Shown: piece after piece, positions 10,525 through 62,186 of the stretch
How positions within the stretch are numbered: the first letter of the stretch is position 1
Layout: the number at the start of each line of letters is the position of its first letter
NCBI GenBank assembly: GCA_965220125.1
Contig: CBDCPB010000004.1
Location: 2,674,270-2,738,269, forward strand
Direction: 5' to 3'
DNA length: 64,000 bases
DNA from: Dehalococcoidia bacterium
GTDB lineage: Bacteria; Chloroflexota; Dehalococcoidia; UBA2979
Notes under the pieces: generated by a model
The model's input: only the letters and a program-made list of their open reading frames with translations
Databases searched by the model: none
What the model was told of the DNA's origin: nothing
Position numbers and translations under genes: made by a program

Positions 10525-10781
10525 CGTGTGCTCCTCGGCGCGCGCCGATGCTACGCGATCGGCGCTGCGCGTTCGGCGAGCCCGTCCGGTCCGAGGCATG
10601 ACGGCGGGTATGCGGCCGCTGCAGCCCGGCACGTCCACGGCCTGACGCCCCGCCGAAGCGGGCCTGCGTCGCCGGATCGCGCGCCCCCCGCTCGCCGGGC
10701 AGGCTCACCGCGCAACGAGTAGGATCGGGCGGCGCCGCGCCTGACTCGTAGCGCACGACCAGCCTCGAAGGAGCCGGAGCC

Positions 10782-12524
10782 ATGACGAACAGCAACGAGG
10801 GAGGCCGCTACCGGGTGGTCTGGCCGCGCAGCGCGAGGCAACTCCAGCCTCAGCCGCTCGCGCCACGGCTGGACACGCTGGCCGGCAAGACGGTCGCCCA
10901 GCTCTGGGACTACGTCTACCGCGGCGACGAGATCTTCGACCTGCTGGAGCCACAGCTCGAGGCGCGCTACCCCGGGGTCCGCTTCGTGAGCTGGCGCGAG
11001 TTCGGCTCCACGCACGGCTCCGAGGAGCGCGAGATTCTCGCCTCGCTGCCGCAGCGCTTCAAGGAGATGGGGGTCGACGCCGTCATCTCCGGGATGGGCT
11101 GCTGAGGGAGCTGCACGCCCGCCGTGATGCGGGCAAGTGCGGCGTGCGAGTTCGCGGGCGTCCCCACCTCGTCGCTCGTCTGCGAGGGGTTCATCGGCCA
11201 GGCCGGCACCACCTCGGAGGGCCTCGGACTGCCGAACCTGCCGCTCGCGCTGGTGCCGGGGCATGTCGGCAACCAGAGCGAGCAGGAGATGGAGCGCAAC
11301 GTCCGCGAGGTGACGCTGGACGCGGTCGTCGCGAATCTGCTCGAGGCGCCCGCGGACGCACCGGCCGTCGCCGAGCCCTCGCCGCGCGAGATCGTCTTCG
11401 ACGGCACGTTCGAGGAGGTCAACCGCTACTTCTACGAGTGCGAGTGGAGCGACGGGCTGCCGGTCGTGCCGCCGACCGTCGAGAAGGTCGCGGAGTTCCT
11501 CGGCTTCACCGATCGCGACCCCGACGAGATGATCGGCGTGATCCTGCCCGACAACCGCGCGGTCACCGTCTGGAGCGTCGCGGTCAACGGCGTGATGGCG
11601 GGCTGCCGGCCCGAGTACATGCCGGTGCTGCTCGCCCTCGCCGAGGCGATGGCCGATCCCGAGTACGGCGTGGAGCACAGCGGCAACACGCCGGGCGCCG
11701 AGACGCTGATCACGATCAACGGACCGATCGCGAGGGAGCTCGGCTTCAACTTCGAGCAGGGCGTCCTGCGCGACGGCTTCATCGCGAACACCTCGATCGG
11801 CCGCTTCTGGCGGCTCTACCTGCGCAACGTCGCCGGTTTCCTGCTGCACAAGAACGACAAGGGGACCTTCGGCAACACCTGGCGCGTGGTGCTGGCCGAG
11901 AACGAGGACGTGCTCGCCGAGATCGGCTGGCCGCCCACCAGCGTCGAGATGGGCTTCGAGGCGGGCGACAACACCGTCACCATCGCGCGCTACACCGGCG
12001 GCGACATGATGGCCTCGGTCTACGGCGATACGCCGGAGCTTGTCCTGCCGTACATCGCCGACGCGGTGCTGAAGCAGAACACCTGGCAGCTGATCTTCAC
12101 CGTCGGCAAGTCGATGGGCTCGCTGCGCCCGCTGCTGGTGCTGAGCCCGATCCTGGCGCAGACGATCGCGAAGGCCGGGTGGAGCAAGCAGGACGTCAAG
12201 CAGTACCTCTTCGACCACGCGCGGCTGCCCGCCTGGGAGTTCGAGCGCTACCTCGGCGACTGGACCGATCACGTGATCCGGTCGCTGGAGTCCGAGGTCA
12301 ACCTCGGCAGGATCCCGAGGGTGTTCCTCGAATCGGATGATCCGAACCGGCTCGTGCCGATCGTGTTCGAGCCCGACGACTTCATGATCGGGGTCGCCGG
12401 CGACCCGCTGCGCAACAACGCCTGCACCTTCGCGCACAACGGCAGGCTCGGCTACCCGGTGGCGAAGCAGATCCGTCTGCCCGCCGATTGGGAGACGCGG
12501 CTCGCCGGCGCGCAAACGGGCTGA
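10782..12524 (+). CDS. candidate selenoprotein: N-terminal domain with a C-U-G-S-C motif (UGA 11103..11105 read as Sec) fused to a ~470-residue domain of unknown family
   Basis: Track ORFs 10782..11105 and 11124..12524 share one frame and are separated only by TGA 11103..11105. AAGGAG precedes ATG 10782. Read through, the peptide is ...DAVISGMGC-U-GSCTPAVMRASAAC.... A SECIS-like hairpin follows the UGA. The alternative is two coupled genes, restarting at GTG 11124. Confidence 0.6.
11110..11143 (+). promoter_or_regulatory. SECIS-like stem-loop immediately 3' of the in-frame UGA
   Basis: GCU-GCAC-GCCCGC-[CGUGAU]-GCGGGC-AA-GUGC-GGC. 11117..11122 pairs with 11129..11134. 11113..11116 pairs with 11137..11140. 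11110..11112 pairs with 11141..11143 (one G.U). There is an AA bulge at 11135..11136. Pairing checked by hand. Confidence 0.55.
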
Positions 12525-12538
12525 CGGGACGGTCCGGG

Positions 12539-13462
12539 ATGGTGCGCCGCCGCGGCAGGTACGACGTCCTCGTGATCGGCGCTGGCGTCAGCGGCCTCAC
12601 GGCCGCGCACCACGCCGTCCGCTACGGCCTCAGCACCGCCTTGATCGAGGGCGAGCCGCTGTTCGGCGGGCAGATCGTGAACGTCGATCAACTCGACGGC
12701 TATCCGGCCGACGGCGAGCTCTCCGGCGTGTCGCTCGCCGTCGGCCTCTTCGAGGGGTGCCGCTCGCTTGGCGTCTCGATCATCCAGGCCCCGGTCGAGG
12801 CGCTCTCGGTCGAGGACGGAGGGCATCTCGCGATCGCGGGCGGCGAGCGGCATCGCGCGCGGGCGGTGGTCGTGGCCTCGGGCGCACGGCTCAAGCGGCT
12901 GGGCGTGCCCGGGGAACGCGAGTTGATCGACCGGGGCGTCTCGCAGTGCGCCTCGTGCGACGCGCCGCTGTTCCGCGACCAGGACGTCGCCGTGATCGGA
13001 GGCGGGGACGCGGCGGCGCAGGAGGCGCTCGTTCTGGCCGGCTTCTGCCGCAGGGTCTACGTCGTCGCCCGCAGCTCGCTCAGGGCGAAGGCGGACTACG
13101 TCAACCGGCTCTCGAGGCTCGACAACGTCGAGTTCGTCTGGGGCTGCGAGGTCGACGAAGTCCTCGGAAGCGGCCAGGTCGAGGGCGTGCGATTGCGCGG
13201 CGTCGGGGACGGCAGCGTCTCGGAGTTGGCCTGCACGGCCGTCTTCCCGTTCATCGGCTCCACCCCGAACAGCGAGTTCCTGCCGCCCGAGCTGGAGCGC
13301 GAGGACGGCTACATCGTCACCGACACGGCGTTCGCGACCTCGCTGCCGGGTGTCTTCGCCGCCGGCGCCGTGAGGCGCGGCTACGGCGGCCATGTCGCCG
13401 AGGCAGTCGGCGAGGCCGTCTCCGCGGCGAGCGCCGCTGTCCGCTACGTTCGAGGCGAGTGA
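12539..13462 (+). CDS. low-molecular-weight thioredoxin-reductase-like flavoprotein disulfide reductase
   Basis: ORF 12488..13462 trimmed to ATG 12539. FAD motif DVLVIGAGVSG, redox-active C-A-S-C (VSQCASCDAPLF; TrxB has CATC), NAD(P)H motif VAVIGGGDAAAQEA, and C-terminal GVFAAGAV. Confidence 0.85.
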   Translation: MVRRRGRYDVLVIGAGVSGLTAAHHAVRYGLSTALIEGEPLFGGQIVNVDQLDGYPADGELSGVSLAVGLFEGCRSLGVSIIQAPVEALSVEDGGHLAIAGGERHRARAVVVASGARLKRLGVPGERELIDRGVSQCASCDAPLFRDQDVAVIGGGDAAAQEALVLAGFCRRVYVVARSSLRAKADYVNRLSRLDNVEFVWGCEVDEVLGSGQVEGVRLRGVGDGSVSELACTAVFPFIGSTPNSEFLPPELEREDGYIVTDTAFATSLPGVFAAGAVRRGYGGHVAEAVGEAVSAASAAVRYVRGE

Positions 13463-13499: not shown

Positions 13500-14441
13500 T
13501 CAGTAGCCCTCCTCGATGTCCACGACCCCTTCGAGCGGTTCGCCCGCCAGGTAGTGGCGCAGATTCGCGATGAAGATATCGACGATCCGATCGCGCCCCG
13601 CCGGCATGCTCCATGAGAGGTGGGGGGTGATCCGCGCGCGCGGGTGCGAGTAGAGCCAGTGCCCGGCCGGCAGCGGCTCCGGCTCGACCGTATCGAGCGA
13701 GGCCATCGCGACGCGCCCGTCATCGAGCGCCTCGCGCAGTGCCTCCTGGTCGACCAGCGTCCCGCGCGCGACGTTGACCAGGTGCACGCCCGGCTTCAGC
13801 TGCGCGAGGGCGGCTCGGTCGATCAGGTGGTGGGTGGCGGCGGTCGCCGGGGCGGCGAGCACGAGGTGGTCCGCCTCCCGCAGCAACTCACCGAGGTCGC
13901 TTGCCAACTCGACGCCTGGCGCCTCGCTCGGCCGCGGGCGGCGGCGCAGGGCGAGCACCCGCATCCCGAAGGGCAGCGCCCGCTCGGCGAGGGCGGCGCC
14001 GATGCCGCCCAGCCCCACCAGTCCCAGCGTCTTTCCGGACAGCGTCCCGAGCCCCGGGTCGACGCGTCGATCGGGTCGCTCGTGGATCCACGTCTGCGGC
14101 AGCCGCTTCTCGAAGGCGAGCATCGTGGCCATCACCCACTCGGCGATCGGCACGCCGCTCGCGCCGCGTGAGCAGCTGAGGGTCTGACCGTCATCGAGCA
14201 GCTCGATCGGGAACTCGTCGACGCCGGTGCCGTAGATGTGGATCCAGCGAACGCCGCTGCGCAGCGCCTCCTCCATGATCGGCACGCTGCGCGCGCCCAC
14301 CAGCAGCACCTCGCCGTCGGCGTCCTCCGGGAACGGGCCACGCGCCGGGATGTGGATCAGCTCGACGCCCTCGACCTCGCGCGTCACGCGTTCGGTCATC
14401 TCGGGTGGCATCCATGTCAGCACGCGGAGGGGAGCGCTCAC
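13500..14441 (-). CDS. D-isomer-specific 2-hydroxyacid dehydrogenase family, NAD-binding
   Basis: 313-aa ORF with a GTG start and AAGGAG upstream. Contains GKTLGLVGLGGIGAALA, LVNVARGTLVD and ITPHLS. Confidence 0.88.
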   Translation of the reverse strand: MSAPLRVLTWMPPEMTERVTREVEGVELIHIPARGPFPEDADGEVLLVGARSVPIMEEALRSGVRWIHIYGTGVDEFPIELLDDGQTLSCSRGASGVPIAEWVMATMLAFEKRLPQTWIHERPDRRVDPGLGTLSGKTLGLVGLGGIGAALAERALPFGMRVLALRRRPRPSEAPGVELASDLGELLREADHLVLAAPATAATHHLIDRAALAQLKPGVHLVNVARGTLVDQEALREALDDGRVAMASLDTVEPEPLPAGHWLYSHPRARITPHLSWSMPAGRDRIVDIFIANLRHYLAGEPLEGVVDIEEGY

Positions 14442-14572
14442 GCGTCACGACTCCTTCGTACGCTGCCGACGCGTTTCGCCCCGGCATGGCGAGCGCGATC
14501 ATAGCGCGTCGCGCGGCGGGTTCGTCGCCGGCCGCATTCGAGAGAGGCGACCAACGGGAGATCGAGGGTTTC

Positions 14573-14600
14573 TTGACAATCCGGTGCCCCGACCTATAGT
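14573..14600 (+). promoter_or_regulatory. sigma-70-like promoter candidate (TTGACA-N16-TATAGT) with a ~150-nt leader before the amidohydrolase/ABC operon
   Basis: TTGACA at 14573..14578 and TATAGT at 14595..14600, in a locally AT-richer intergenic region. Confidence 0.45.
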
Positions 14601-14754
14601 CAACAGCAGTGATATAGCGAGGGTGATAGGGCGAAGGGGGAACGCCCGCTCCGATCACCAACGGTCATCCCAGACCCCGTGGACCGGCGTTCCCGGTCCG
14701 GCGCGTTCGCGAGGCTACGCCCTCCCCCGGTCAGCGCCTCGTGTTGGAGGCAGC

Positions 14755-15966
14755 ATGATCACGGACGAGATCAAGGTCATCGACGTTGACACGCACGTAA
14801 CGGAGCCGTACGACCTCTTCACGTCGCGCGTCTCGACGAAGAAGTGGGGCGACATGGTGCCCCACGTTCGCAACATCCCCTGGGAGACGGCGAGGCACTG
14901 GGATCCGAGCGCGGACCCGGAGATGCCGCGTGACATCTGGATCCTCAACGGACAGCCCTCGTCGCCGATCGGCATCACGGCGATGGCCGGCTGGCGCGAG
15001 TGGCCTCCGGCCCACCCGTCGACCCTCGAGGACTTCGACCCCGGCTCCTACGACTCGACGAAGCGCCTGGAGCGCATGGACGAGTACGGGATGTACGCCC
15101 ACATCATCTACCCGAACGTGGCGGGCTTCGGGAATCAGAACTTCCTCAAGCTTGAGGACCCCGAGCTCATGCTCGCCTGCGTCCGCGCCTACAACGACTT
15201 CCTGCACGAGTGGTCCGCCGTCGATCCGAAGCGGCTGCTGCCGATCATGGCCGTCCCCTTCTGGGACATTGATGCGACGGTCGAGGAGATCAACCGCTGC
15301 TTCAAGCTCGGCCACAAGGGCGTGCTGTTCCCGCAGCAGCCGCACCTCTTCGGCGATTCGCCGATGCTGGCCGACCCGCACTGGAACCCCGTGTGGCACA
15401 CGGCCGAGGACCTGGGCCTGAGCATCAACTTCCACATCGGCTCCGGTAACCCGGTCGAGGTGCACGGCGGCTTTGCCGGCAACGGCTCGCAGGCGAACTA
15501 CTCCGCGGGCACCGTGCGCTTCTTCATGGACAACATGAACGGCATCATGGAGATCCTGATCTCCGGCATCTGCCACCGCCACCCCAACCTCAACTTCGTC
15601 TCCGTCGAGAGCGGCATCGGCTGGGTTCCCTACGTCCTCGAGGCGCTGGACTGGCAGTGGATGAACGCGGGCGCCCGCGAGGAGCACCCGGAGATGGAGT
15701 TGCTGCCCAGCGAGTACTTCAAGCGCCAGGTCTATGCCTGCTTCTGGTTCGAGCGTGACATCGCGCTCCGGACCATCGACCTGCTGCCCGACAACGTGCT
15801 CTACGAGACGGATTTCCCGCATCCCACGAGCATGTCGCCGGGTCCGGCATCGATCGCGGACGTGCCGAAGGACTTCATCGAGCGGAACCTCAGCTCGCTG
15901 CCGAGGGAGACGCTCGAGAAGGTCCTCCACGACAACGCGGCGCGCGTGTACCACCTCGACTACTAG
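14755..15966 (+). CDS. amidohydrolase_2 family (ACMSD-like metal-dependent hydrolase/decarboxylase)
   Basis: ORF 14236..15966 trimmed to ATG 14755 (GGAGG upstream). Contains IDVDTHVTEP, HKGVLFP, SINFHIG and ETDFPHP. Confidence 0.88.
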   Translation: MITDEIKVIDVDTHVTEPYDLFTSRVSTKKWGDMVPHVRNIPWETARHWDPSADPEMPRDIWILNGQPSSPIGITAMAGWREWPPAHPSTLEDFDPGSYDSTKRLERMDEYGMYAHIIYPNVAGFGNQNFLKLEDPELMLACVRAYNDFLHEWSAVDPKRLLPIMAVPFWDIDATVEEINRCFKLGHKGVLFPQQPHLFGDSPMLADPHWNPVWHTAEDLGLSINFHIGSGNPVEVHGGFAGNGSQANYSAGTVRFFMDNMNGIMEILISGICHRHPNLNFVSVESGIGWVPYVLEALDWQWMNAGAREEHPEMELLPSEYFKRQVYACFWFERDIALRTIDLLPDNVLYETDFPHPTSMSPGPASIADVPKDFIERNLSSLPRETLEKVLHDNAARVYHLDY

Positions 15967-16077
15967 CCGGCGAACGCGGGCGGGGCGCGTCCCTTCGCGG
16001 GCGCTCCCCCGCCGCGCGGTGTGCCGGAGGGCCGAACGGAGCAACGCCAGGGATCAGATCCGCAAGGGGGGCATCGG

Positions 16078-17961
16078 ATGAACGACGAACGCGAGCTTGC
16101 ACGGCTCATGGGGGTGCTCACCACCCGACGATCCCTGCTGCGCGGCGCGGCGCTCGGCGGCGCCGGGCTCGCCGCCGCGGCGCTGATCGGCTGCGGCGAC
16201 GAGGAAGAGGAGCCGCCCGCCCCAGCCGCGACGGCCACACAAGCCGCGGCCGCCACGCCCACGGCCACACAAGCCGCGGCCGCCACGCCCACGGCTACAC
16301 AGGCCGCAGCCGCCGCGCCCACGGCCACGCCGACCGAGGCGGCGCCCGCGGAGCCGGACTACGCCGCGCAGGCACTCGCAGACGGCGCGCCCTTCCCGTA
16401 CGGCTACGCCGAGCCCGAGGGGGCGCCGAAGGCCGGCGGGATACTGCGTATCTCCCTCCTCTATCGCGGGACGCCAGCGACGTTTGACACAGGAAAGCAG
16501 CTTGAGCTTGCGGCCTCGACGGCGACGTTCTCAGCGGACCGCCTGGTTGGGTTCGCGACCGGGCAGGATCTGGGTAAGTACGTTCCGAAGACTCAGCCGG
16601 AGCTCGCGAAGTCCTGGGAGGTGAGCCCAGACGGTCTCGAATTCACGTTCGATCTGGAGCCGAACGTCAACTACCAGAATGTGGCGCCGGTCAACGGCAG
16701 GCCGTTCATCGCGCAGGACGTAAAGCTGACCTACGAGCGGCATGCGGCAGGGGGCCTGAACCAGGCCTTCTTCGCGTACGCGGACTCCTTCACCGTGGTC
16801 GACGACCAGACGTTCACCATCCAGATGAGATCGCCGGACGCGGACCTGCCCGTGGCGCTCGCCAGCCGCCAACTACCGATCTACGCGCCTGAGCTGTGGG
16901 ACGACGGGTCGATCGACACGATGGCCATCGGCACAGGCCCCGCGATACTCACGGACGTGGAGAAGGAAGCGCAGGTGACCTTCGAGTCGAACCCCGACTA
17001 TTGGCAGGGGAAACCGTACCTCGACGGCGCGGAGCTGGTCATCATCCCCGATGTCGCCGCGCGGCTCGCCGAGTACCGGGTGGGCAGGCTCGATCATGCC
17101 AATAGCATCGTCAGAAACAAGGATCAGGCCGACGGGCTGATCGAGAGCAACCCCGGCACGCGGATCACGTCGGATCCGATTACGAACGCCATCAGCTTCT
17201 TCGCGTTCAACACCGATCACCCGAAGCTGCAGGACGACAGGGTGCGTCAAGCGATGTCGCTGGCGCTGGACCGGGAAGAGATGGTCCAGATTCTGTCCGG
17301 AGGCCTGGGCAGGGTGCTCCCGGTGTTCCTCTGGCCGCTGGTATTCGACGAGGAGCCGTCGGGGGACGAGCTCGGTCGCTGGTGGCGGCACGACCCAGCC
17401 GAGGCGAAGAAGCTCGTGCAGGCGGCCGGCGCGGACGGCGTCAGCTTGACGACCTTGTTTACGCCGTCGTACGGGGCCAGCCAGCCCAACAACATCGCGT
17501 TCGTGAGTTCGCCCTGGAAAGAGATCGGCATCAATCTCGAGTCCCAGGACGTGGACTTCCAGACATTCTCCGCGTTGCGCTTCACGAGCAAGTTCAGGGA
17601 TGACCCTGACAGCCAGATGATGCAGGGGTACTCGACGGCCGCGCCGACGGCAAAGGGCTCGTTCTTCGATCTGGTGCACTCGCAGTCCTCACAGAACGTG
17701 CACACGGTCAAGGATCCGGACATCGATACCTGGGCTGAGCAGGCGGTCGGCGAATTCGACCCGGAGGCGCGTCGCGAGCTGCATCGCAAGATCTGGGACC
17801 GCGAGCTGGACCGGGTGCTCCGCCTGTCCATGTCTCAGACGTTCAACTACACGCCGGTGCAACCGTGGCTCAGGTACTACCGGTGGAATGGAGCATTCAT
17901 TTCCGTGTACCACACCTTCGATTGGGGCTTTGGCTACCACAAGGCGTGGCTGGACAAGTAG
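16078..17961 (+). CDS. ABC transporter substrate-binding lipoprotein, family 5 (peptide/nickel/opine type)
   Basis: ORF trimmed to ATG 16078. Tat motif TRRSLLRG, lipobox AALIGC, Ala/Thr/Pro linker, then a family-5 SBP body (WQGKPYLDG..., FNTDHPKLQDDRVRQA). Confidence 0.9.
   Translation: MNDERELARLMGVLTTRRSLLRGAALGGAGLAAAALIGCGDEEEEPPAPAATATQAAAATPTATQAAAATPTATQAAAAAPTATPTEAAPAEPDYAAQALADGAPFPYGYAEPEGAPKAGGILRISLLYRGTPATFDTGKQLELAASTATFSADRLVGFATGQDLGKYVPKTQPELAKSWEVSPDGLEFTFDLEPNVNYQNVAPVNGRPFIAQDVKLTYERHAAGGLNQAFFAYADSFTVVDDQTFTIQMRSPDADLPVALASRQLPIYAPELWDDGSIDTMAIGTGPAILTDVEKEAQVTFESNPDYWQGKPYLDGAELVIIPDVAARLAEYRVGRLDHANSIVRNKDQADGLIESNPGTRITSDPITNAISFFAFNTDHPKLQDDRVRQAMSLALDREEMVQILSGGLGRVLPVFLWPLVFDEEPSGDELGRWWRHDPAEAKKLVQAAGADGVSLTTLFTPSYGASQPNNIAFVSSPWKEIGINLESQDVDFQTFSALRFTSKFRDDPDSQMMQGYSTAAPTAKGSFFDLVHSQSSQNVHTVKDPDIDTWAEQAVGEFDPEARRELHRKIWDRELDRVLRLSMSQTFNYTPVQPWLRYYRWNGAFISVYHTFDWGFGYHKAWLDK
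16231..16320 (+). repeat. 30-bp tandem repeat (3 copies) inside the SBP linker
   Basis: ACGGCCACACAAGCCGCGGCCGCCACGCCC at 16231..16260 is identical at 16261..16290. The third copy (16291..16320) has a few substitutions. Encodes TATQAAAATP three times. Confidence 0.9.
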
Positions 17962-24356: not shown

Positions 24357-24662
24357 TCAGTAGCGCTGCTCGTACCAGCCGTCGCCGGGCGGCTGCGTCT
24401 CGTCGTGGAAGAGCGTGAGCGTGCCGCCGCCCTCGAGGACGACGCGGTAGTAGCTGCGCCGCAGCGGCGGCTCGCGCCACCACTCGTCCGCGATGCGCCA
24501 CGCCTCCGCGACGCGCTCGACGGCGAGCGGTGCGTCCCGCACGCCGCGCCGCGTCCGCCGCAACTCGCGCGGCTCGCCCTCGGGGCCGGGACGCACCTCG
24601 ATCGGCCGTGGCAGGCCCAGCGGGCTGAGCGCGCCGTCCGCCGGCTGCCGCTCCGCGCTCAC
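24357..24662 (-). CDS. ImuB C-terminal domain encoded as a separate ORF in the -1 frame (GTGA overlap with the imuB stop)
   Basis: GTG at 24662..24660 overlaps the imuB TGA (24661..24659). 101 aa. VERVAEAWRIADEWWREPPLRRSYYRVVLEGGGTLTLFHDE...GWYEQRY resembles the C-terminal WW...YY...W motif region of full-length ImuB proteins as I recall them. Confidence 0.6.
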   Translation of the reverse strand: MSAERQPADGALSPLGLPRPIEVRPGPEGEPRELRRTRRGVRDAPLAVERVAEAWRIADEWWREPPLRRSYYRVVLEGGGTLTLFHDETQPPGDGWYEQRY

Positions 24663-25861
24663 GGCTCGTAGTCGGCGAGGGCGTAGCGGCGCTCGGGGAT
24701 GCGGCTCTGCGGAGCGAGCGCGACGACACGGCGCAGCGCCGCCTGCCCGTAGCGCAGCCGCAGGTGGCGGGCCATCTCGTCCAACTGCTCGCGACGCCGC
24801 GCGCCGCCCTCGCGCAGCAGCCGGGCCTGGCGGCCACGCTCGGCGGTCAGGCCGCCGAGCTCCAGCGTCAGCTCGGCCACCGGCCCGCCGAACTCCGCCG
24901 CCTCGATCGAGGGCGCGAGCGCGGTCCACAGCCGCGTGCGGTCGCCGGTCGGCTCGGTCAGCACGCGACGGCGCTCCCAGACCCGCTCGTCCTCCATCAC
25001 GGCGTTGAGCTGGACGGCGCGCACGAGACGGCCGCGCGCCACGGGCCGTGCGAGCGCGCGTCCCAGCAGTTGCCCGAAGGTGTGCAGCAGCGCCTCGCGG
25101 CCGATCAGCGGCGGCTCGGCCTGCGCGCGCTCCAGCACGCGCTCGCGCTGCGCGATGGGCGCGAGCGGCGTCGGATCTTCGCCGCGCGCGGCCAGCCAGG
25201 CGCGCCCGCCCGCCTCCCCGAGCTGCGCCTCGACGGCGTGTCGCGGCAGCGCCGCGAGGTCGCCGAGCGTGGCGATGCCGAGCAGCGCGAGCCACTCCCG
25301 CGCCGCCTGCTCCAGCGGCAGCAGCGCGGTCGGCCGCGGCGCGAGGAAGGCGCGCGCCTCGTCGCCGTCGATGCGCAGCCACGCCCCCGGTTGCGCGGCG
25401 AAGGCGGCCACGCGCGCCGTGAAGCGGCTGTCCGCCACTCCCAGCCGCGCGCCGAACTCGCGCGGAGCCGCCTCCAGCAGCGCCCGGGCGAGTGCGTCCT
25501 GCTGCGGGTAGAGGCCCTCGAGGCCGCGCAGGTCGGCGTAGACCTCGCCCGGCGCCGCCTCCTCGACCAGCGGGCTGACGGCGGCGGCGGCCTCGACGAG
25601 CTGCGAGGCGGCGCGCCGCACGCGCGCCGGCCGCGCCTCGATGACGGCGAGCGCGGGGCAGCAGGCCAGCGCCTCGCTGAGCCGCTGTCCCGGCCGCACC
25701 CCGCGCGCGGCGGCGGCCTCGCTGGCCTCGGCCACGCGCCGCCCGGAGTCATCGCTGACGGCGACGGGCCGCCCGTGCAGCTGCGGACGCGCCGCCAGCT
25801 CGGCGGCGAGCGCCGGCGATGGCACGAGCAGGCATGCGATCCGTGAGCGTCGAATCCTCAT
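24659..25861 (-). CDS. imuB: ImuB-like Y-family polymerase homologue (body, 400 aa)
   Basis: N-terminus RIACLLVPSPALAAE...GRPVAVSD...VRPGQRLSEALACCPAL, without an obvious catalytic acidic triad. Divergent from dnaE2 across a LexA box. Confidence 0.8.
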   Translation of the reverse strand: MRIRRSRIACLLVPSPALAAELAARPQLHGRPVAVSDDSGRRVAEASEAAAARGVRPGQRLSEALACCPALAVIEARPARVRRAASQLVEAAAAVSPLVEEAAPGEVYADLRGLEGLYPQQDALARALLEAAPREFGARLGVADSRFTARVAAFAAQPGAWLRIDGDEARAFLAPRPTALLPLEQAAREWLALLGIATLGDLAALPRHAVEAQLGEAGGRAWLAARGEDPTPLAPIAQRERVLERAQAEPPLIGREALLHTFGQLLGRALARPVARGRLVRAVQLNAVMEDERVWERRRVLTEPTGDRTRLWTALAPSIEAAEFGGPVAELTLELGGLTAERGRQARLLREGGARRREQLDEMARHLRLRYGQAALRRVVALAPQSRIPERRYALADYEP

Positions 25862-25888
25862 GGTTCACCCCCGCCAAGAGGCTTGCGC

Positions 25889-25918
25889 ATGGTAGCAGAA
25901 CGCACGTTCTGTTACCAT
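25889..25918. promoter_or_regulatory. LexA (SOS) box GAAC-N4-GTTC inside a 30-bp near-perfect palindrome between imuB and dnaE2
   Basis: ATGGTAGCAGAAC GCAC GTTCTGTTACCAT has 13-bp arms with one mismatch. The core GAACGCACGTTC is at 25898..25909. TACCAT hexamers lie on both strands at the palindrome ends (25913..25918 on +, complement of 25889..25894 on -). Confidence 0.7.
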
Positions 25919-25947
25919 GCCTCCCGGTGCGGCGAGGGGGTGACGCC

Positions 25948-28900
25948 GTGGCGCGTATACGCCGCGATCAGCAGCCCGGCTACATGGAGCGCTGGGACGA
26001 GTTCGAGGCCCGGCAGGCTCGGGCCGTGCCGGACACCCCGCGCTCGCGTGCGCCTCGCGATCCGGCCGCGCCCCTCGTCGGCGACGCGCTCGACGGCGTG
26101 CCCTACGTCGAACTGCACGCGCATAGCCACTACTCGTTGCTGGAGGGCGCATCGAGCCCCGGCGAGCTGGTGCGGACCGCCGTCGAGCAGGGTCACGCCG
26201 CGCTGGCGCTGACCGACCACGACGGCATGTTCGGGGCGATGGAGTTCGCGCGCGCCGCCCGCGAGGCGGGACTGCGGCCGATCAGCGGCCTCGAGCTCAC
26301 TGTCTCCGAACCGGCGGCGTCGGGCGACGACGACTGCGACGGCGGCGAGGTGCGCTCGCACCTCACGCTGCTGGCGGAGACGCGGCAGGGCTACGCCAAC
26401 CTCTGCCGGCTCTCCAGCTACGCCTTCGGGCTGCGCGAGAGCGATCGCCGTGCGCAGGAGGCGCGGCGGCTCGACCCCGTACTCCCGCTCGCCGATCTGG
26501 AGCGGCACGCGGACGGGCTGATCGTGCTCAGCGGCTGCCGCGAGGGCCGCATCCCCCGCCTCGTGCAGGCGGGACGCCGGGCCGAGGCGGCCGCGGCGCT
26601 CGAGCGCCTCGCCGGCTGGTTCGGGGCGGACCGGGTCTTCGTCGAGCTGCAGGACAACGACGTGCACGGCGACCGCCCGCGCAACGAGGCGCTGGTCGCG
26701 CTCGCGGAGCGGGCGGGCGTGGGCGTGGTCGGCACCGGCAACGTCCACTACCACGTGCGCGAGCGGCACCGGCTGCAGGACGTGCTGGTCGCGATCCGCC
26801 ATCGCGCGAGCCTCGACGAGTCCCACGCCGAGCGGCGGCCGAACGCCGAGTTCTGGCTGCGCAGCCCGCGGGAGCAGGCCGAGCGCTTCGCGCGCTACCA
26901 CCCGCAAGCGGCGGCGAACACGCTGCGGATCGCGCGCCGTTGCCGCTTCGACCTGACAGCCGACCTCGGCTACCGGCTGCCCTCGCCGCCCCTGCCCGGA
27001 GGCGTCACGCCGCTCGAGGAGCTGGAGCGGCTCTGCCGCGAGCGTCTGGGGGAGCGCTACCGCTCGCCGGCCGAGCGCGGCAAGGCCGAGGCGCAACTGG
27101 TCGAGGAGCTGCGGCTGATCGGACTGCACGACCTGGCCGGGTTCTTTCTCATCTACCACGAGATCTTCAAGCTGGCGCAGGAGGTGGCCCGCGAGGTGCG
27201 CGGGCCCGGCGCCGCCCGCAGCGTCACCAACCTGCCGCCCGGGCGCGGCCGCGGCTCCTCGGTCTCCTCGCTGGTCTGCTACCTGATCGGGCTCTCGCAC
27301 ATCGACCCGATTCGCCATCGCCTCTTCGTCGGGCGCTTCCTCAACGAGGAGATGGAGTCGCTGCCCGACATCGACCTCGACTTCCCGCGCGACATCCGGG
27401 CGGAGCTGATCGAGCGCGTCCACGAGCGCTGGGGCCGCGAGCGCAGCGCGCTCGTCGCCGCCTTCGCCACCTACCGGCTGCGCAGCGCGGTGCGCGACGT
27501 CGGCAAGGCGCTGGGGCTGCCCTCGGCGGAGCTGGACCGCCTCGCCGGGCTGGCCGGCCCCTACGACGGGCCCGGCCAGCTGCCCGAGGAACTCGCGCGC
27601 TCGCCGCAGTTCCGGGACCGCGCGGAGGCGCGAGGCTGGCGGGAGCTGGCCGCGCTCGTGCCGCAGCTCGCGGGCGTGCCGCGCCACCTCTCGCAGCACC
27701 CCGGGGGCATGGTGATCTCCTCGGGGCCGCTGATCGACTGCGTACCCTGCCAGCCGGCGGCGATGGCGGGCCGCTACCTCTGCCACTGGGACAAGGACTC
27801 CGTCGACGACGCGCGGATGGTGAAGATCGACTTCCTCGCGCTCGGCATGCTCTCGGTCGTCGAGGAGACGATCGACCTGATCGCCGACGGGCGCGGGCGC
27901 ATCGTCGACCTCTCGCGTATCGACTTCGAGGACGAGGCGGTCTACGACGCGATCTGCCGCGGCGACACGGTCGGCGTCTTCCAGATCGAATCGCGCGCGC
28001 AGATCGCGATGCTGCCGCGGACGCAGCCGCGCAACCTCGAGGATCTCACCGTGCAGGTCTCGATCGTGCGGCCGGGGCCGATCGTCGGCGGCGCGGTGAA
28101 CCCCTACGTGCGGCGTCGCGAGCAGCAGCGCCGCAACCCCGGCTACCGCCCCGCCCCGCCGCACGAGTGCGTGCGCGAGGTGCTGGAGGAGACGCTGGGG
28201 GTGGTGATCTTCCAGGAGCAGGTGCTGCAGGTCGCCCGCCACATGGGCGGCTTCACGCCCGGCGAGGCCGATCGCTTCCGCCGCTCGCTGGGCCGCAGGC
28301 GCGCGCACGAGGAACTCGATGCCTGGCGCGCGCGCTTCATGGCGGGCGCGGCGGAGCGCGGGGTGCCGCTCACGGTAGCGGAGCAGGTCTTCGGCAACCT
28401 CGCGGGGTTCGCGGAGTTCGGCTTCCCGAAGAGCCACGGCGCGGCCTTCGCGCTGCTCGCCTACCAGTCGAGCTGGCTCAAGCAGCGCTACGGCCCCGAG
28501 TTCCTGTGCGCGCTCTTCAACCAGCAGCCGATGGGCTTCTACCCGCCGCACGTGCTGACCAACGACGCCAAGCGCCACGGCGTCGCCGTCGAGCGGCCCG
28601 ACATCAACGTCAGCGCCGCCCGCTGCACGGTCGAGCTGCCCGAGGGCGCGATCCGCGTCGGCCTTGGCTACGTGCGGGGCCTCGGCGCCGCCTGGGCCGA
28701 GCGCATCGAGGAGGAGCGCGAACGCGCGGGCGAGTACCGCTCGCTGTTCGGCTTCGTGCAGCGCACGGGGCTGGGCCGGCAGGCGACGGCGCGCCTCATC
28801 CAGGTCGGCGCCTTCGACGGCTTCGGGCTGCAGCGCCGCGAGCTGCTCTGGCAGCTCGGGCTGTTCACGGGCGGGGCCGTCGCCGGGACGGCGGGCGCAC

Positions 28901-29397
28901 CCGCGGCGGAGGTGGCCGGGCGTCAGTTACGCCTCGATCTGCCGACGGCGCAAGACATGGTGACGCTGCCGGACTTCGGCCCCTACCAGCGGATGGCCGC
29001 CGACTACGCGCTGCTGGGCCTCTCGCCGGACCGCCACCCGATGCGCTTCCTGCGCCGCGCGCTCGGCGAGGGCGTCGCCTCCAGCCGCCACCTGCAGGCG
29101 CTGCCGGCCGGGCGCACGGTGGAGGTCGCGGGGCTGGTGGTCTGCCGCCAGCGCCCGCTCACCGCGCGTGGCATCGTCTTCCTGCTGCTCGAGGACGAGT
29201 ACGGCCTGATGAACATCCTCGTGCGGCGCGAGCTGGCCGAGGAGCGGCGCGACGTCGTGCGCACGGCGGCCTTCGTGCGCGCGCGCGGCGTGCTCGACGA
29301 GCGCGCCGGCGAGCAGCGCACGCTCATCGCCGGCGCCCTCGACGAGATCACGCCGGCGGGCGCGCTGCCGATGCCGTCCGGCAAGTCCTGGGCCTGA
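25948..29397 (+). CDS. dnaE2: error-prone DNA polymerase III alpha subunit DnaE2
   Basis: ORF 25819..29397. Proposed start is GTG 25948 (GAGGGGG 7 nt upstream); ATG 25984 is an alternative. PHP domain YVELHAHSHYSLLEGAS. Pol III alpha core (GRGSSVSSLVCYLIGLSHIDP, PDIDLDF, HPGGMVI). Context with imuB and the LexA box. Confidence 0.9.
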   Translation: MARIRRDQQPGYMERWDEFEARQARAVPDTPRSRAPRDPAAPLVGDALDGVPYVELHAHSHYSLLEGASSPGELVRTAVEQGHAALALTDHDGMFGAMEFARAAREAGLRPISGLELTVSEPAASGDDDCDGGEVRSHLTLLAETRQGYANLCRLSSYAFGLRESDRRAQEARRLDPVLPLADLERHADGLIVLSGCREGRIPRLVQAGRRAEAAAALERLAGWFGADRVFVELQDNDVHGDRPRNEALVALAERAGVGVVGTGNVHYHVRERHRLQDVLVAIRHRASLDESHAERRPNAEFWLRSPREQAERFARYHPQAAANTLRIARRCRFDLTADLGYRLPSPPLPGGVTPLEELERLCRERLGERYRSPAERGKAEAQLVEELRLIGLHDLAGFFLIYHEIFKLAQEVAREVRGPGAARSVTNLPPGRGRGSSVSSLVCYLIGLSHIDPIRHRLFVGRFLNEEMESLPDIDLDFPRDIRAELIERVHERWGRERSALVAAFATYRLRSAVRDVGKALGLPSAELDRLAGLAGPYDGPGQLPEELARSPQFRDRAEARGWRELAALVPQLAGVPRHLSQHPGGMVISSGPLIDCVPCQPAAMAGRYLCHWDKDSVDDARMVKIDFLALGMLSVVEETIDLIADGRGRIVDLSRIDFEDEAVYDAICRGDTVGVFQIESRAQIAMLPRTQPRNLEDLTVQVSIVRPGPIVGGAVNPYVRRREQQRRNPGYRPAPPHECVREVLEETLGVVIFQEQVLQVARHMGGFTPGEADRFRRSLGRRRAHEELDAWRARFMAGAAERGVPLTVAEQVFGNLAGFAEFGFPKSHGAAFALLAYQSSWLKQRYGPEFLCALFNQQPMGFYPPHVLTNDAKRHGVAVERPDINVSAARCTVELPEGAIRVGLGYVRGLGAAWAERIEEERERAGEYRSLFGFVQRTGLGRQATARLIQVGAFDGFGLQRRELLWQLGLFTGGAVAGTAGAPAAEVAGRQLRLDLPTAQDMVTLPDFGPYQRMAADYALLGLSPDRHPMRFLRRALGEGVASSRHLQALPAGRTVEVAGLVVCRQRPLTARGIVFLLLEDEYGLMNILVRRELAEERRDVVRTAAFVRARGVLDERAGEQRTLIAGALDEITPAGALPMPSGKSWA

Positions 29398-46286: not shown

Positions 46287-47135
46287 TTAGCGGCCGGCGG
46301 CGGCGGCGATCGCGCGGCCCGTGAAGACCCGCGTCATCGCCCGCCGGTACTCCTCCGAGCCCGCCAGGTCCGCGTTCAGGTCCTCCAGGCTGTCGGCCGC
46401 CGCGGCGGCGGCGGAGATCGCCTCTTCGTCCAGCGCCGAGCCGGTCAACGCGTCCTCGACCGCCCCGAGCCGCTGCGCGTGCGTCGAGGCGCCCGTCACG
46501 GCCACGCGGGCGCCCGTGCAGACGCCGCCCTCGACGGTCAGCGAGGCCGCCACACCGACGATCGCGAAGTGCGAGGCCGGGTGGCGAAGCTTCGCGTAGG
46601 CCGCCTGCGAGGGAGCGTCGAAGCTGACCGAGGTGATCAACTCCTCCTCCGCGAGGTCGACCTCGAAGAGGCCGCTGAAGAAGTCGCCGGCAGCGACCGT
46701 GCGCTCGCCGCCCGGACCGGCGATGTGGATCGACGCGTCGAGCGCGACCACCACGGCCGGGAGGTCGGACGCCGGGTCGGCGTGCGCCAGGCTCCCGCCG
46801 ATCGTGCCGCGGTTGCGCACCTGCTGGTCGCCGATCTCGCCCGCCGCCTCGGCGACGACGGGCGCGGACGCCAGCAGGACCGCGTCGTCCTCGAGTTCGG
46901 CGTGCGTGGTGAGCGCGCCGATCGAGATCCGTCCGCCGTCCTCGCTGACGCCGGAGAGGCCGGGGATGCGGCTGATGTCGATGAGCAGCGACGGCTCGGC
47001 GAGGCGCAGCTTCATCAGCGGGATCAGGCTGTGACCCCCGGCGATGAAGCGGGCGTCGCCTTCCGCCTGCTGCTTGAGCGCGATCGCCTCCTCGACGGAG
47101 CCGGCGCGCTGGTACTCGAACGCTGAGGGGATCAT
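46287..47135 (-). CDS. coxM: molybdenum hydroxylase FAD-binding (medium) subunit
   Basis: FEYQRAGSVEEAIAL...ARFIAGGHSLIPLMKLR and RNRGTIGGSLAHADP. Confidence 0.9.
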   Translation of the reverse strand: MIPSAFEYQRAGSVEEAIALKQQAEGDARFIAGGHSLIPLMKLRLAEPSLLIDISRIPGLSGVSEDGGRISIGALTTHAELEDDAVLLASAPVVAEAAGEIGDQQVRNRGTIGGSLAHADPASDLPAVVVALDASIHIAGPGGERTVAAGDFFSGLFEVDLAEEELITSVSFDAPSQAAYAKLRHPASHFAIVGVAASLTVEGGVCTGARVAVTGASTHAQRLGAVEDALTGSALDEEAISAAAAAADSLEDLNADLAGSEEYRRAMTRVFTGRAIAAAAGR

Positions 47136-49507: not shown

Positions 49508-49971
49508 GGCGCACCTCCCGCCGCCGTCTTCACGGCGTTGATGATGTGCTCGTAGCCCGTGCAGCGGCAGAGGTTCCCGTCCAGCCCTCGGCGGATCTCA
49601 TCGTCCGAGGGGTCCGGGGAGCGCTCCAGCAGGTCGACGCCGGACATGATCATGCCCGGCGTGCAGTAGCCGCACTGCAGCCCGTGCTCGTCCCAGAAGG
49701 CCTGCTGCAGCGGATGCATCTCGCCGTCCGCGCTCAGGCCCTCGATGGTGGTGACGGATGCGCCGTCGGCCTGCACCGCGAGCACGGTGCAGGACTTGGC
49801 GGACGCGCCGTCGAGCGTCACGGTGCAGGCGCCGCACTGACTGGTGTCGCAGCCCACATGCGTGCCGGTCAGGTTCAGCTCCTCCCGCAGGAGATGCACC
49901 AGCAGCGTGCGAGGCTCCACCTCCAGTTCGTGGAGCCGTCCGTTCACGGTCACTGAAATCGGTACGGTCAT
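49504..49971 (-). CDS. coxS: [2Fe-2S] small subunit of the molybdenum hydroxylase
   Basis: [12 protein letters not shown] and [11 protein letters not shown]...NLCRCTGY. Confidence 0.92.
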
Positions 49972-59708: not shown

Positions 59709-59954
59709 CGCCGTCCCTGCATGTCGGGAAATCTCTCATATCGGCTGTCTTTGACTCATGAGGAGGGTTGCTGAACCAGTACCTCCGGCTCGCCGAACTG
59801 CACACATCCGTGATTGACAGCGGTCACGGTCGGATGGTACTGATCCGGCATTCGGCGGGCAAATGCCAGCCCCCCCGGGCCCTGCGTGACCAACGGGCCT
59901 GTATGCGTGTGCGTGCATGCACGCTGCGCGGGCATCAGGACAGGCGGGACATGT

Positions 59955-60866
59955 ATGACCGGGCAGCAGAGTGATCAGCTAGGCGCGGACTTCCGGACAG
60001 GCGAAGAGGAAAATCCCGAGCAGCTTGTCCTGTACGAAAAGGTCGACAAGCACATCGCGCTGATTACGCTCAACAGACCCGAGCGTCTCAATGCGATGTT
60101 GGCACCCTGGAGTTTCAACGAGCTGAGCAACAAGATCCAGCGGGCAGAGGATGACGACGAGATCAAGGCGATCATCCTCACGGGGGCAGGGCGAGCCTTC
60201 TGCGCCGGCGTGGACCTGCGCCGCACCCCGGTTGAGGTTTCGGGACTTCGCCCCGGGCAGCGGCTTCCGCAGTCCCTGCGGATGCATCGGCCGGGCCAGT
60301 GGGGCGGGGGCAGGAACCTGCTCAACTGCGACAAGACCGTGATTGCCGCCGTCAACGGCGCCGCGGTCGCAGCCGGATTCCACTACGTCATCCAGTGCGA
60401 CATCGTCGTGGCGAGCGAGACCGCGACGATGGGCGAGCCGGAATCGCGCATCGGCTTTGCCGGCTTCACGCCGGACATGGTGGTGATGCTGCAGAAGCTC
60501 GGGATCAATCGCGGTCGCGAGGCGATCCTCACGGGGCGGATGATGCCGGCGCAGGAACTCAAGGAGTGGGGCTTCGTCGCATCGGTCGTTCCGCCGGACC
60601 AGCTGATGGACGAGGCGATGCGCTACGCGAAGATGGTCGCGTGGCACTCGACCGACAACCTGATGCTGGGGCGACGCTCGATGCGTCTGTTCTGGGATCT
60701 GATGGGCGTGCCGGCCTACAACACCTGGACCAGCATCGCGCACCCGCTGTTCACCAACCTGGTGTGGCGGGACGACGAGTTCAACTTCCTGCGTGAGCGG
60801 AACAAGCGCGGGCTGCGCGGCGCCCTGGACGAGATGGGGCGCCAGTGGGACGAGCTCGGGTTCTAG
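59955..60866 (+). CDS. enoyl-CoA hydratase/isomerase (crotonase) family
   Basis: ORF 59886..60866 trimmed to ATG 59955. Contains ITLNRPERLNA and ILTGAGRAFCAGVDLR. Confidence 0.88.
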   Translation: MTGQQSDQLGADFRTGEEENPEQLVLYEKVDKHIALITLNRPERLNAMLAPWSFNELSNKIQRAEDDDEIKAIILTGAGRAFCAGVDLRRTPVEVSGLRPGQRLPQSLRMHRPGQWGGGRNLLNCDKTVIAAVNGAAVAAGFHYVIQCDIVVASETATMGEPESRIGFAGFTPDMVVMLQKLGINRGREAILTGRMMPAQELKEWGFVASVVPPDQLMDEAMRYAKMVAWHSTDNLMLGRRSMRLFWDLMGVPAYNTWTSIAHPLFTNLVWRDDEFNFLRERNKRGLRGALDEMGRQWDELGF

Positions 60867-60941
60867 AGCGCCCAGGGTCCAGGCCGATGGTACGCTCCCG
60901 ATCGCGGGGGCGCGCAGCCAGTGCTGCGCAGGGAGGACGAG

Positions 60942-62186
60942 ATGACGACTGACGTGGACCGCGCTGTGGACGATGCCGAGCTGGAGGCCTTTCGCCGCGA
61001 AGTCGTCGGCTGGCTCGACGCACACCTCGACGGTGTGGGCTCTCCGCCCGACGGCAACGACGCGAGCGAGGAGGAGTACCAGCGCAATCACCAGTTCCTG
61101 CGCGAACTCGCGCAGCAGGGCTGGTACGGCCCCGGCTGGCCCACCGAGTACGGCGGCGGCAGTCTCCCACGCGAGAAGGTCGAGATCATCCATGACGAGC
61201 TTCTCCACAACGTCCCCGCATTCCAGAACGTCCGCCTCCCCGGGGACATTGGCGGCAGCCTCGCCGCTGCTACCTGGCAGCTCGGTACCGATGAGCAGAA
61301 GCAGCGCTTTGTGCCGCCGATCCTGCGCGCGGACGTGGTGACCTGGGAGCTGTTCACCGAGCCGGACCACGGTTCTGACCTCCCGGGCATGCAGGCGCAG
61401 GCGGTGCGCCATGGCGATGAGTACGTGCTCAACGGCTCCAAGATCTTCGTCGGCGGCAACTTCAGAGCCGACCAGTACTTCGTCCTCGCGGTTACCGCCC
61501 CGAACGGGAGCCGCCATGCGAATCTCAGCGCGTTCGTTACGCCTTCGGACGCGCCCGGGCTGACCGTGATGCCGATGGAGATGATGGCGGGCCACAAGAA
61601 GAACCTGATCACGCTCGACAACGTCGTCGTCCCGGCCGAGAACCGCATCGGCAACGAGGGGGACGGCTGGAGCTGCTTCATGATCAGCGTCCCCGAGTTC
61701 GGCTCGGTGGGATTGCCCGCCTCCGGCGGGCGGACGCCGTTTGTCCTCGACATGCTCATGGAGTACGCGCGGACCACCACCCGCGGTGGGAAGCGGCTGA
61801 TCGACAGCCCGCGCCAGCGCTCGGCAGTGACGAAGGCCTGGATCGGCGGGCAGGTGAACCGCCTGCTGCTCGAGCGCAACCAGAGGCGTCAGGCCGACCC
61901 TCGCGCAGCAACGCACCAGCTCAACACCTACCAGGGCTCGCAGGGGGCGATGCTCGGCAAGCTCTACGCCGTTGAGCTGTCGGAAGCGATTCAGCAGGTG
62001 TTGGGGCCGCTCTCGATCATCGGCGACACTGCCTGGGCGCCGTACGAGGGCGAGCTTGAGTACTTCCAGCGCCAGGCAATCGTGAACACGCACCCCGGAG
62101 GCACCATCGAGACGCAGAAGACGCGCATGTTCCGTGGCATGGCCTCGGACCGCAGCCTGCAGGAGATCAAGGCGGAGCGAAGATGA
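60942..62186 (+). CDS. acyl-CoA dehydrogenase family protein (divergent), first of a tandem pair
   Basis: ORF trimmed to ATG 60942 (GGGAGGA upstream). Contains WELFTEPDHGSDL and YVLNGSKIFVGG. Confidence 0.82.
   Translation: MTTDVDRAVDDAELEAFRREVVGWLDAHLDGVGSPPDGNDASEEEYQRNHQFLRELAQQGWYGPGWPTEYGGGSLPREKVEIIHDELLHNVPAFQNVRLPGDIGGSLAAATWQLGTDEQKQRFVPPILRADVVTWELFTEPDHGSDLPGMQAQAVRHGDEYVLNGSKIFVGGNFRADQYFVLAVTAPNGSRHANLSAFVTPSDAPGLTVMPMEMMAGHKKNLITLDNVVVPAENRIGNEGDGWSCFMISVPEFGSVGLPASGGRTPFVLDMLMEYARTTTRGGKRLIDSPRQRSAVTKAWIGGQVNRLLLERNQRRQADPRAATHQLNTYQGSQGAMLGKLYAVELSEAIQQVLGPLSIIGDTAWAPYEGELEYFQRQAIVNTHPGGTIETQKTRMFRGMASDRSLQEIKAERR

Follow-up and report, generated by a model that had tools for sequence, protein, structure and literature searches.

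The UGSC-containing protein is a predicted selenoprotein family that was among the most abundant in the Global Ocean Sampling (GOS) metagenomes, where 255 sequences with selenocysteine (Sec) were recorded against 21 with cysteine (PMC2398784). The 2008 GOS study of Zhang and Gladyshev also described a "UGSC/Unknown_1" fusion, in which the extra domain has a conserved cysteine and also occurs alone, and suggested a thioredoxin (Trx)-like fold for the UGSC protein (PMC2398784). Later reviews list the UGSC family, together with the model NF041046, as functionally uncharacterized (PMC9312934, PMC13188914). The locus considered here lies in a 64,000-nucleotide stretch of a Dehalococcoidia genome (assembly GCA_965220125.1, contig CBDCPB010000004.1, positions 2,674,270 to 2,738,269 of the forward strand; hereafter the window), and consists of a gene at 10782..12524 in which an in-frame UGA is predicted to encode selenocysteine within a U-G-S-C motif, upstream of a large fused C-terminal domain. 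A UGSC selenoprotein family and a UGSC fusion were thus already published in 2008, and the gene in the window is a new, mis-annotated case.

One gene divided by an in-frame UGA

The open reading frames (ORFs) 10782..11105 and 11124..12524 have a common frame, and over the 1,743 nt that they span the sole in-frame stop is the TGA at 11103..11105, with coordinates and sequence as given in a preliminary description of the locus. The codons after this TGA are GGG AGC TGC ACG CCC GCC, and the read-through peptide is ...DAVISGMGC-*-GSCTPAVMRASAAC..., where the asterisk marks the TGA. The C-U and U-x-x-C redox-type motif proposed in the preliminary description is present in the translated frame as U108-G-S-C111. 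The principal features of the gene are as follows.

10782..12524, + strand: predicted full-length UGSC-fusion selenoprotein gene; 580 codons plus stop, ATG start, TGA stop at 12522..12524, a single frame with one internal TGA
10768..10773, + strand: Shine-Dalgarno-like AAGGAG, 8 nt before the ATG at 10782; read from the sequence, its function presumed
11103..11105, + strand: UGA, predicted selenocysteine codon, residue 108 of U-G-S-C; Cys in 13/13 aligned full-length homologs, TGA in all other DNA copies
11112..11114, + strand: Cys111 codon, presumed resolving cysteine of U-x-x-C; invariant in alignment A2

The G/C-ending codon habit that had been noted around the TGA was borne out by composition: G+C at third codon positions of the gene frame is 0.93-1.0 across the TGA and about 0.45 at second positions, with non-coding values upstream of 10782 (the window as a whole is 69.7% G+C). 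When both strands of the 64 kb were searched for in-frame TGA codons flanked on either side by 25 or more coding-like codons, 11103..11105 was the one case, and the two-ORF arrangement is therefore not a chance juxtaposition. The position of the ATG is identical in five Dehalococcoidia orthologs. Within the lineage of the window, the ratio of nonsynonymous to synonymous substitution rates (dN/dS) lies between 0.15 and 0.23 over the 107 codons that precede the UGA and between 0.08 and 0.22 over the part that follows; since it is low on both sides, both halves of the gene are maintained by selection.

The two ORFs are one 580-residue gene that is split in public annotation. The division by gene callers that had been anticipated is on record, in that public databases contain two separate entries, of 107 and 465 aa, which are identical to the two parts of the window gene; a related metagenome-assembled genome (MAG) has them as the adjacent "hypothetical proteins" F4Z25_13015 and F4Z25_13010. 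GTG 11124..11126, from which gene callers start the 466-aa ORF, supplies the G-U-G of the apical loop in the hairpin described below. Database entries of about 465 aa in this family begin there or one codon later; the 465-aa entry of the window gene begins at ATG 11127.

Cysteine and UGA at the homologous position

A search of 5.8 billion proteins yielded 5,258 relatives, most of them about 465 aa long and starting just past the TGA column; full-length relatives (578-607 aa, covering 97-99% of the query) formed a minority among the top 120. The alignment column beneath 11103..11105, which the preliminary description had singled out as the place to check the selenocysteine reading, is occupied by cysteine in 13/13 aligned full-length homologs, within the pattern G-x-G-[AC]-C-G-S-C-T-P-A-V. 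At the DNA level the column reads TGA in 83/83 copies (80 named-genome loci, here labeled L001 onward, the window, and two paralogs) and in 80/80 further metagenome loci, giving 163/163 DNA copies from Chloroflexi, Proteobacteria, Acidobacteria and metagenomes. Identity to the window protein is 88-96% in Dehalococcoidia and 64-76% in Alpha-, Beta- and Gammaproteobacteria and Acidobacteria, and the cultured hosts among the TGA loci are Steroidobacter flavus CGMCC 1.10759 and Novosphingobium sp. MW5. A metagenome scan seeded with the Cys forms returned Sec forms only; DNA for Cys-form genes was obtained protein by protein, and seven Cys-encoding genes were compared. Across all loci, other genes with an in-frame TGA proved to be only adjacent same-frame genes without a redox motif.

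The conservation of TGA, the Cys-aligned column and purifying selection on both sides are not to be explained by a pseudogene, by a sequencing error or by a true stop codon. On the evidence as a whole, that of the hairpin described below included, the in-frame UGA at 11103..11105 very probably encodes selenocysteine, with a probability of about 0.9.

Two further observations concern the distribution of the gene. Loci L013 (copies at 8322 and 11830) and L045 (5365 and 1616) each have two UGA-containing fusion copies within a few kb, each copy with its own hairpin. The Dehalococcoidia protein is 76% identical to the alphaproteobacterial copies in L005 and L006 and 64-70% identical to most other proteobacterial copies; the former value is high for a comparison between phyla and suggests horizontal transfer.

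A SECIS-like hairpin constrained in the UGA genes only

In the well-known selenocysteine insertion sequence (SECIS) of E. coli fdhF, the upper stem-loop begins about 11 nt after the UGA and has G-U in the apical loop. The minimum free energy fold of the window sequence places a comparable structure directly behind the UGA.

11110..11143, + strand: SECIS-like hairpin; lower stem 11110-11116/11137-11143, AA bulge 11135-11136
11117..11134, + strand: upper part of the hairpin; upper stem 11117-11122/11129-11134 (6 bp), loop CGUGAU 11123-11128

The upper stem-loop starts 11 nt past the UGA, and the loop G-U is invariant (columns 22-23 counted from the U of UGA). In an alignment of 79 distinct sequences, 92.3% of cells are paired over the 13 base pairs of the hairpin; controls in which the 3' partners are displaced by one to three columns reach 24-51%. 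Double changes occur at two pairs, one from G-C to A-U and the other from C-G to U-A, each in seven sequences, and the former entails an Ala-to-Val replacement in the protein. Codon usage indicates a constraint at the same place: mean third-position entropy over 148 conserved, at least four-fold degenerate codon columns is 1.25 bits, and it is essentially zero in four of them only, codons 114-117, which form the top of the hairpin. Ala114 GCC, Val115 GTG and Arg117 CGG are each used in 163/163 UGA genes, but in 1/7, 5/7 and 1/7 of the Cys genes, respectively. The upper stem is intact in 94% of the UGA genes, whereas the Cys genes keep three to five of its six pairs. A constraint on the RNA that is confined to UGA genes and absent from Cys genes points to a SECIS-type element, and the predicted hairpin at 11110..11143 behaves as a bacterial SECIS is expected to behave.

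Association with selenocysteine machinery

Genes for selenocysteine synthesis and insertion are found beside the fusion gene in a subset of its relatives. The roughly 1.2 Mb of sequence flanking the 80 named-genome loci contains eight tRNAs, of which five are tRNA-Sec and three of these lie 22-65 nt beyond the stop of the fusion gene (L017, L020 and L051). At least one of SelA, SelB, SelD and tRNA-Sec occurs within about 8 kb in 20/80 loci, as judged with tblastn using the E. coli SelA, SelB and SelD proteins. In L017 and L051 the gene order is selD, selA, selB, flavoprotein, UGSC-fusion gene, tRNA-Sec; in L020 no sel genes were seen among the ORFs scanned beside tRNA-Sec, and tblastn then placed selD and selA upstream. 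Compact selD/selA/selB/tRNA-Sec clusters enclose the UGSC-fusion gene in several Gamma- and Alphaproteobacteria (L017, L020, L051; L027, L036). In such cluster-bearing bacteria the retention of the machinery may rest chiefly, or entirely, on this one selenoprotein, and the fusion gene may also travel with that machinery as an island.

Alternative explanations

A number of results weigh against a functional selenoprotein and its proposed chemistry. ARAGORN found no tRNA in the 64-kb window, SelA, SelB and SelD were not found among the roughly 45 window genes scanned with Pfam, and in the five closest Dehalococcoidia loci no Sec-machinery gene was found up to 8 kb from the UGSC-fusion gene. The single-sequence folding energy of the hairpin is unremarkable for sequence of 70% GC (z = -1.5), and as this z-score is not significant the comparative tests were relied on. 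Searches of Rfam at gathering and permissive thresholds returned no SECIS or other meaningful match, and covariation in the hairpin is modest, because it sits in a highly conserved peptide; the sequences being related, the Fisher p-values are not independent probabilities. The electron relay set out below is drawn from gene adjacency and motif conservation only, and experimental data for any family member were not found in the literature searched.

If the UGA were a genuine stop, the locus would yield two proteins, one of 107 aa and one of about 465 aa restarted at GTG 11124 or ATG 11127. The gene callers arrive at exactly this split, GGGAG lies 13 nt upstream of the GTG, and the lack of Sec machinery in the window agrees with it. 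However, such a split would fall inside one Pfam domain, between a strand and a helix of the modeled fold, and the Cys homologs are continuous proteins of 578-607 aa. The GGGAG is not conserved, being replaced by GGCAGC, GGCTCC or GGAAGC in other loci; the supposed start GTG belongs to the invariant hairpin loop; most loci have Leu (TTG or CTG) at codon 116; and the RNA constraint is specific to UGA-containing genes. With these points in view a genuine stop is left with a very slight chance. The machinery missing from the window and from within 8 kb in the closest Dehalococcoidia loci could also mark a relic, that is, a true selenoprotein gene in its relatives that has recently been inactivated in a host which lost the Sec machinery and now makes truncated products only. 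Yet the Dehalococcoidia copies, six in number with that of the window (the others are L001-L004 and L009, 88-96% identical to it in amino acids), have all kept TGA, hairpin and ATG; a dN/dS of 0.15-0.23 upstream of the UGA, at a proportion of synonymous differences of up to 0.29, indicates sustained purifying selection; and the 107-aa piece belongs to a 47-member cluster found on many contigs. A relic is, on balance, improbable. That the TGA might be a sequencing or assembly error, the mark of a pseudogene, or a codon for another amino acid under a non-standard code is suggested by the bare presence of an in-frame stop and nothing more, and it is effectively refuted: TGA recurs in 163/163 copies from independent assemblies, most genes of the window end in TGA, so that UGA is a normal stop here, and the homologous column holds Cys rather than Trp or Gly.

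The UGSC domain and family membership

The N-terminal part of the protein belongs to a described domain that spans the UGA.

10815..11330, + strand: UGSC domain, residues 12-183, spanning the UGA; Pfam PF24696, 107.6 bits, E = 1e-30

The match to PF24696 is far above the gathering threshold of 25 bits and runs from profile position 2 to 167 of 172; the U/C-G-S-C motif of this family, conserved family-wide, is present as U108-G-S-C111. The best NCBIfam match is NF041046 (residues 35-183), but at 53.7 bits it is far under the 125-bit cutoff, and all 14 full-length relatives match that model similarly weakly (best E = 1.9e-15). The NF041046 profile is 147 positions long and describes a single domain, while the window protein of 580 aa consists of a UGSC module followed by an extra domain of about 380 aa. 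Membership of a "UGSC family (seleno)protein" family, which the preliminary description had named, stands in part: NF041046 exists and the PF24696 match extends across the TGA, but a score of 53.7 bits against a cutoff of 125 places the protein outside the NF041046 equivalog. It is a UGSC-domain protein, not a member of the NF041046 equivalog of about 147 aa.

A structural view is provided by a confident AlphaFold2 model of the Cys homolog P0024, which is 67% identical to the window protein (predicted local distance difference test score, pLDDT, 87.4; predicted template modeling score, pTM, 0.89). Its N-terminal half is an alternating beta/alpha arrangement in which the redox motif lies between strand 97-103 and helix 108-121. 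Foldseek comparison of the full-length model with the PDB gave weak flavodoxin/Rossmann-type matches, none at E < 1e-3. The Trx-like fold suggested in 2008 for the UGSC protein is not supported by this model.

Weak local similarity to the "selenoprotein B" reductases recurs around the Sec. The PrdB model (D-proline reductase) gives such a match in 12/14 family members (best E = 4e-4) and the GrdB, GrdH and GrdF models in three to five of 14; for TIGR04483 about 50 residues around the Sec align, at 16.2 bits against a cutoff of 300. A remote relationship of the UGSC domain to these reductases may accordingly be a lead on mechanism, but is not membership.

The fused C-terminal domain

11364..12521, + strand: C-terminal domain, residues ~195-580; 4,391 cluster representatives at E <= 1e-3; motifs WSDGLPxxPPT and NGVMAGC(R)P
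11604..11606, + strand: Cys275 codon, the one near-invariant cysteine of the C-terminal domain; invariant in alignments A2 and A4

In alignment A7, which covers identities of 30-66%, Cys275 is at least 90% conserved, and it is kept in 24/25 standalone paralogs. Pfam gave no match to the domain, even over 69 diverse family members; NCBIfam gave none either, and sequence searches of the PDB with two profiles returned nothing credible. The AlphaFold2 model of the domain is confident (pLDDT 85.4), and Foldseek found no match to it in the PDB at E < 1e-3. The top Foldseek match, a class-I fumarate hydratase, was rejected as insignificant (template modeling score 0.24, root-mean-square deviation 15.7 A). 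The UGSC domain is also present in 55/69 representatives of the C-terminal domain, so fusion is the rule.

Standalone paralogs of the C-terminal domain, about 31-36% identical, directly follow the fusion gene, in many cases separating it from the flavoprotein gene described below; about ten alphaproteobacterial loci have a free copy in that intermediate position. The loci that carry such paralogs are:

L006, 9744..10928: standalone C-terminal-domain paralog
L041, 10448..11557: standalone C-terminal-domain paralog
L005, L029, L048, L052, L054-L057, L063 and L070: further loci with a standalone paralog

One 861-aa database protein, P0077, seems to be an annotation in which a truncated Sec-form gene has been joined to a standalone copy of the domain.

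A flavoprotein neighbor and a proposed redox relay

Immediately downstream of the selenoprotein gene lies a gene for a flavoprotein of the thioredoxin-reductase type.

12539..13462, + strand: thioredoxin-reductase-like flavoprotein, 307 aa; Pyr_redox_2, E = 6e-38; starts 14 nt after the stop of the selenoprotein gene
12947..12958, + strand: C-A-S-C redox motif, flavoprotein residues 137-140; C-A-x-C-D kept in 38/38 neighboring copies

The flavoprotein aligns end to end with TIGR01292 (thioredoxin-disulfide reductase) at 254.4 bits, below the equivalog cutoff of 343.45, and its C-A-S-C corresponds to the redox-active CxxC that such enzymes have in the NADPH domain. A homolog adjoins the selenoprotein gene in 38/80 genome loci, on either side and mostly at less than 260 nt, and at least six of the nine Cys-form loci likewise have one next to the gene. 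The sub-cutoff score and the synteny with the selenoprotein gene suggest that the flavoprotein is probably a dedicated paralog, serving as the reductase of the selenoprotein.

A working scheme can be drawn from these features. SelB-GTP-Sec-tRNA(Sec) would bind the hairpin and insert selenocysteine at codon 108, forming a U108-G-S-C111 redox center at a strand-to-helix junction of the alternating beta/alpha UGSC domain. Electrons would pass from NAD(P)H to FAD, then to the flavoprotein dithiol (C-A-S-C) and on to a U108-C111 selenenylsulfide, and the resulting selenolate would have as its target either a substrate or C275 of the C-terminal domain, so that flavoprotein and selenoprotein would constitute a dedicated NAD(P)H-driven reductase system. 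Such a relay is plausible, and the odds on it may be put at about even. Neighboring genes (TctC receptors, family III CoA-transferases, acyl-CoA dehydrogenases and amidohydrolases) point to no specific substrate.

A wider proposal, which should be taken as tentative and is in our estimate more likely wrong than right, is that the fusion protein and its dedicated thioredoxin-reductase-like flavoprotein, with the free C-terminal-domain copy in some genomes, make up a hitherto uncharacterized NAD(P)H-dependent selenoenzyme system, widespread in aerobic Proteobacteria and in marine or sponge Dehalococcoidia. On this proposal the Sec domain would be distantly related to the GrdB/PrdB proteins, and the C-terminal part would be a catalytic domain of about 380 residues whose fold has no solved relative. 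In the several lineages where the gene lies inside the selD-selA-selB-selC cluster, such a system could be the principal reason for keeping the Sec machinery.

Other features of the window

The gene content of the window is that of a versatile organic-acid degrader, and its closest relatives are Dehalococcoidia/Chloroflexi MAGs. Among the genes are the following.

20086, 56245 and 57529: three family III CoA-transferases
14236 and 30194: two amidohydrolase_2 genes
33280: sulfatase
46287-49597: xanthine-dehydrogenase-family molybdenum enzyme
about 21.4-23.0 kb: thiamine pyrophosphate enzyme

Three SBP_bac_5 ABC transporter sets, two NHL-repeat proteins and a luciferase-like monooxygenase are also encoded. 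A Y-family polymerase-like gene (impB/mucB/samB) at 24659..25864 (- strand) stands beside a 1,212-aa DnaE-type DNA polymerase III alpha gene at 25759..29397 (+ strand), an arrangement reminiscent of the ImuB/DnaE2 mutagenesis cassette. Between 24.6 and 25.9 kb, two long ORFs of opposite strand overlap. Two pairs of same-frame ORFs are split by a single TAG, 14236..15966/15967..17961 (amidohydrolase and solute-binding protein) and 59844..60866/60867..62186 (an unscanned ORF and acyl-CoA dehydrogenase), and both appear to be ordinary adjacent genes rather than recoding candidates.

Beyond the window, eight of the loci come from MAGs titled "Bordetella parapertussis" (L035, L038, L042, L058, L059, L065, L071 and L075), in which the gene context is typical of environmental Burkholderiales, with many TctC receptors; these species labels look doubtful.

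Comparison with known systems

The hairpin resembles an fdhF-type SECIS in lying directly 3' of the UGA within the coding sequence, in the 11-nt distance to its upper stem-loop, in the invariant G-U of its apical loop and in an unpaired bulge on the 3' side. It differs from that element in sequence and matches no Rfam model, and binding of SelB is here a prediction.

The redox motif of E. coli TrxB is C-A-T-C. The flavoprotein has C-A-S-C in its place and, as in low-molecular-weight TrxB, aligns with TIGR01292 from end to end; unlike TrxB it scores below the cutoff of that model and is syntenic with the selenoprotein gene, not with a thioredoxin gene.

The grd operon encodes a thioredoxin and a thioredoxin reductase that re-reduce the glycine reductase system, and the thioredoxin-reductase-like neighbor of the UGSC-fusion gene forms a parallel to this arrangement. 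GrdB, GrdH, GrdF and PrdB share with the fusion protein a UxxC motif and the weak, recurrent local similarity around the Sec. However, that similarity amounts to about 16 bits against cutoffs of at least 300 and extends over only about 50 residues; no PrdA/GrdE-type partner or GrdA was found with Pfam among the scanned neighbors (window, L006, L012, L017, L020, L025 and L041); and the hosts of the UGSC fusion are aerobic heterotrophs, not Stickland fermenters.

The closest correspondence is with the UGSC family itself (PMC2398784, PF24696, NF041046), with which the gene shares the U-G-S-C motif and a great preponderance of Sec over Cys forms. The NF041046 proteins, of about 147 aa, have a single domain against the 580 aa of the fusion, and the alternating beta/alpha fold of the AlphaFold2 model stands against the Trx-like fold suggested in 2008. 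The description of the "UGSC/Unknown_1" fusion fits the C-terminal domain in its near-invariant C275 and its standalone copies, and this domain may be "Unknown_1". In the source genome two adjacent "hypothetical proteins" are to be merged into one 580-residue selenoprotein, and hundreds of database entries need a like correction, most homologs of about 465 aa being truncated calls that start inside the SECIS loop. Such corrections are routine for selenoproteins; the biology of a large, Sec-dominant and uncharacterized enzyme family is the part worth pursuing. Few bacterial selenoprotein families have, like the UGSC family, far more Sec than Cys forms, and this one is abundant in environmental bacteria. 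The conserved thioredoxin-reductase-like partner, the frequent embedding in sel clusters and the large fused domain without a structural relative may go beyond the literature searched, and they make the function of the family experimentally approachable.

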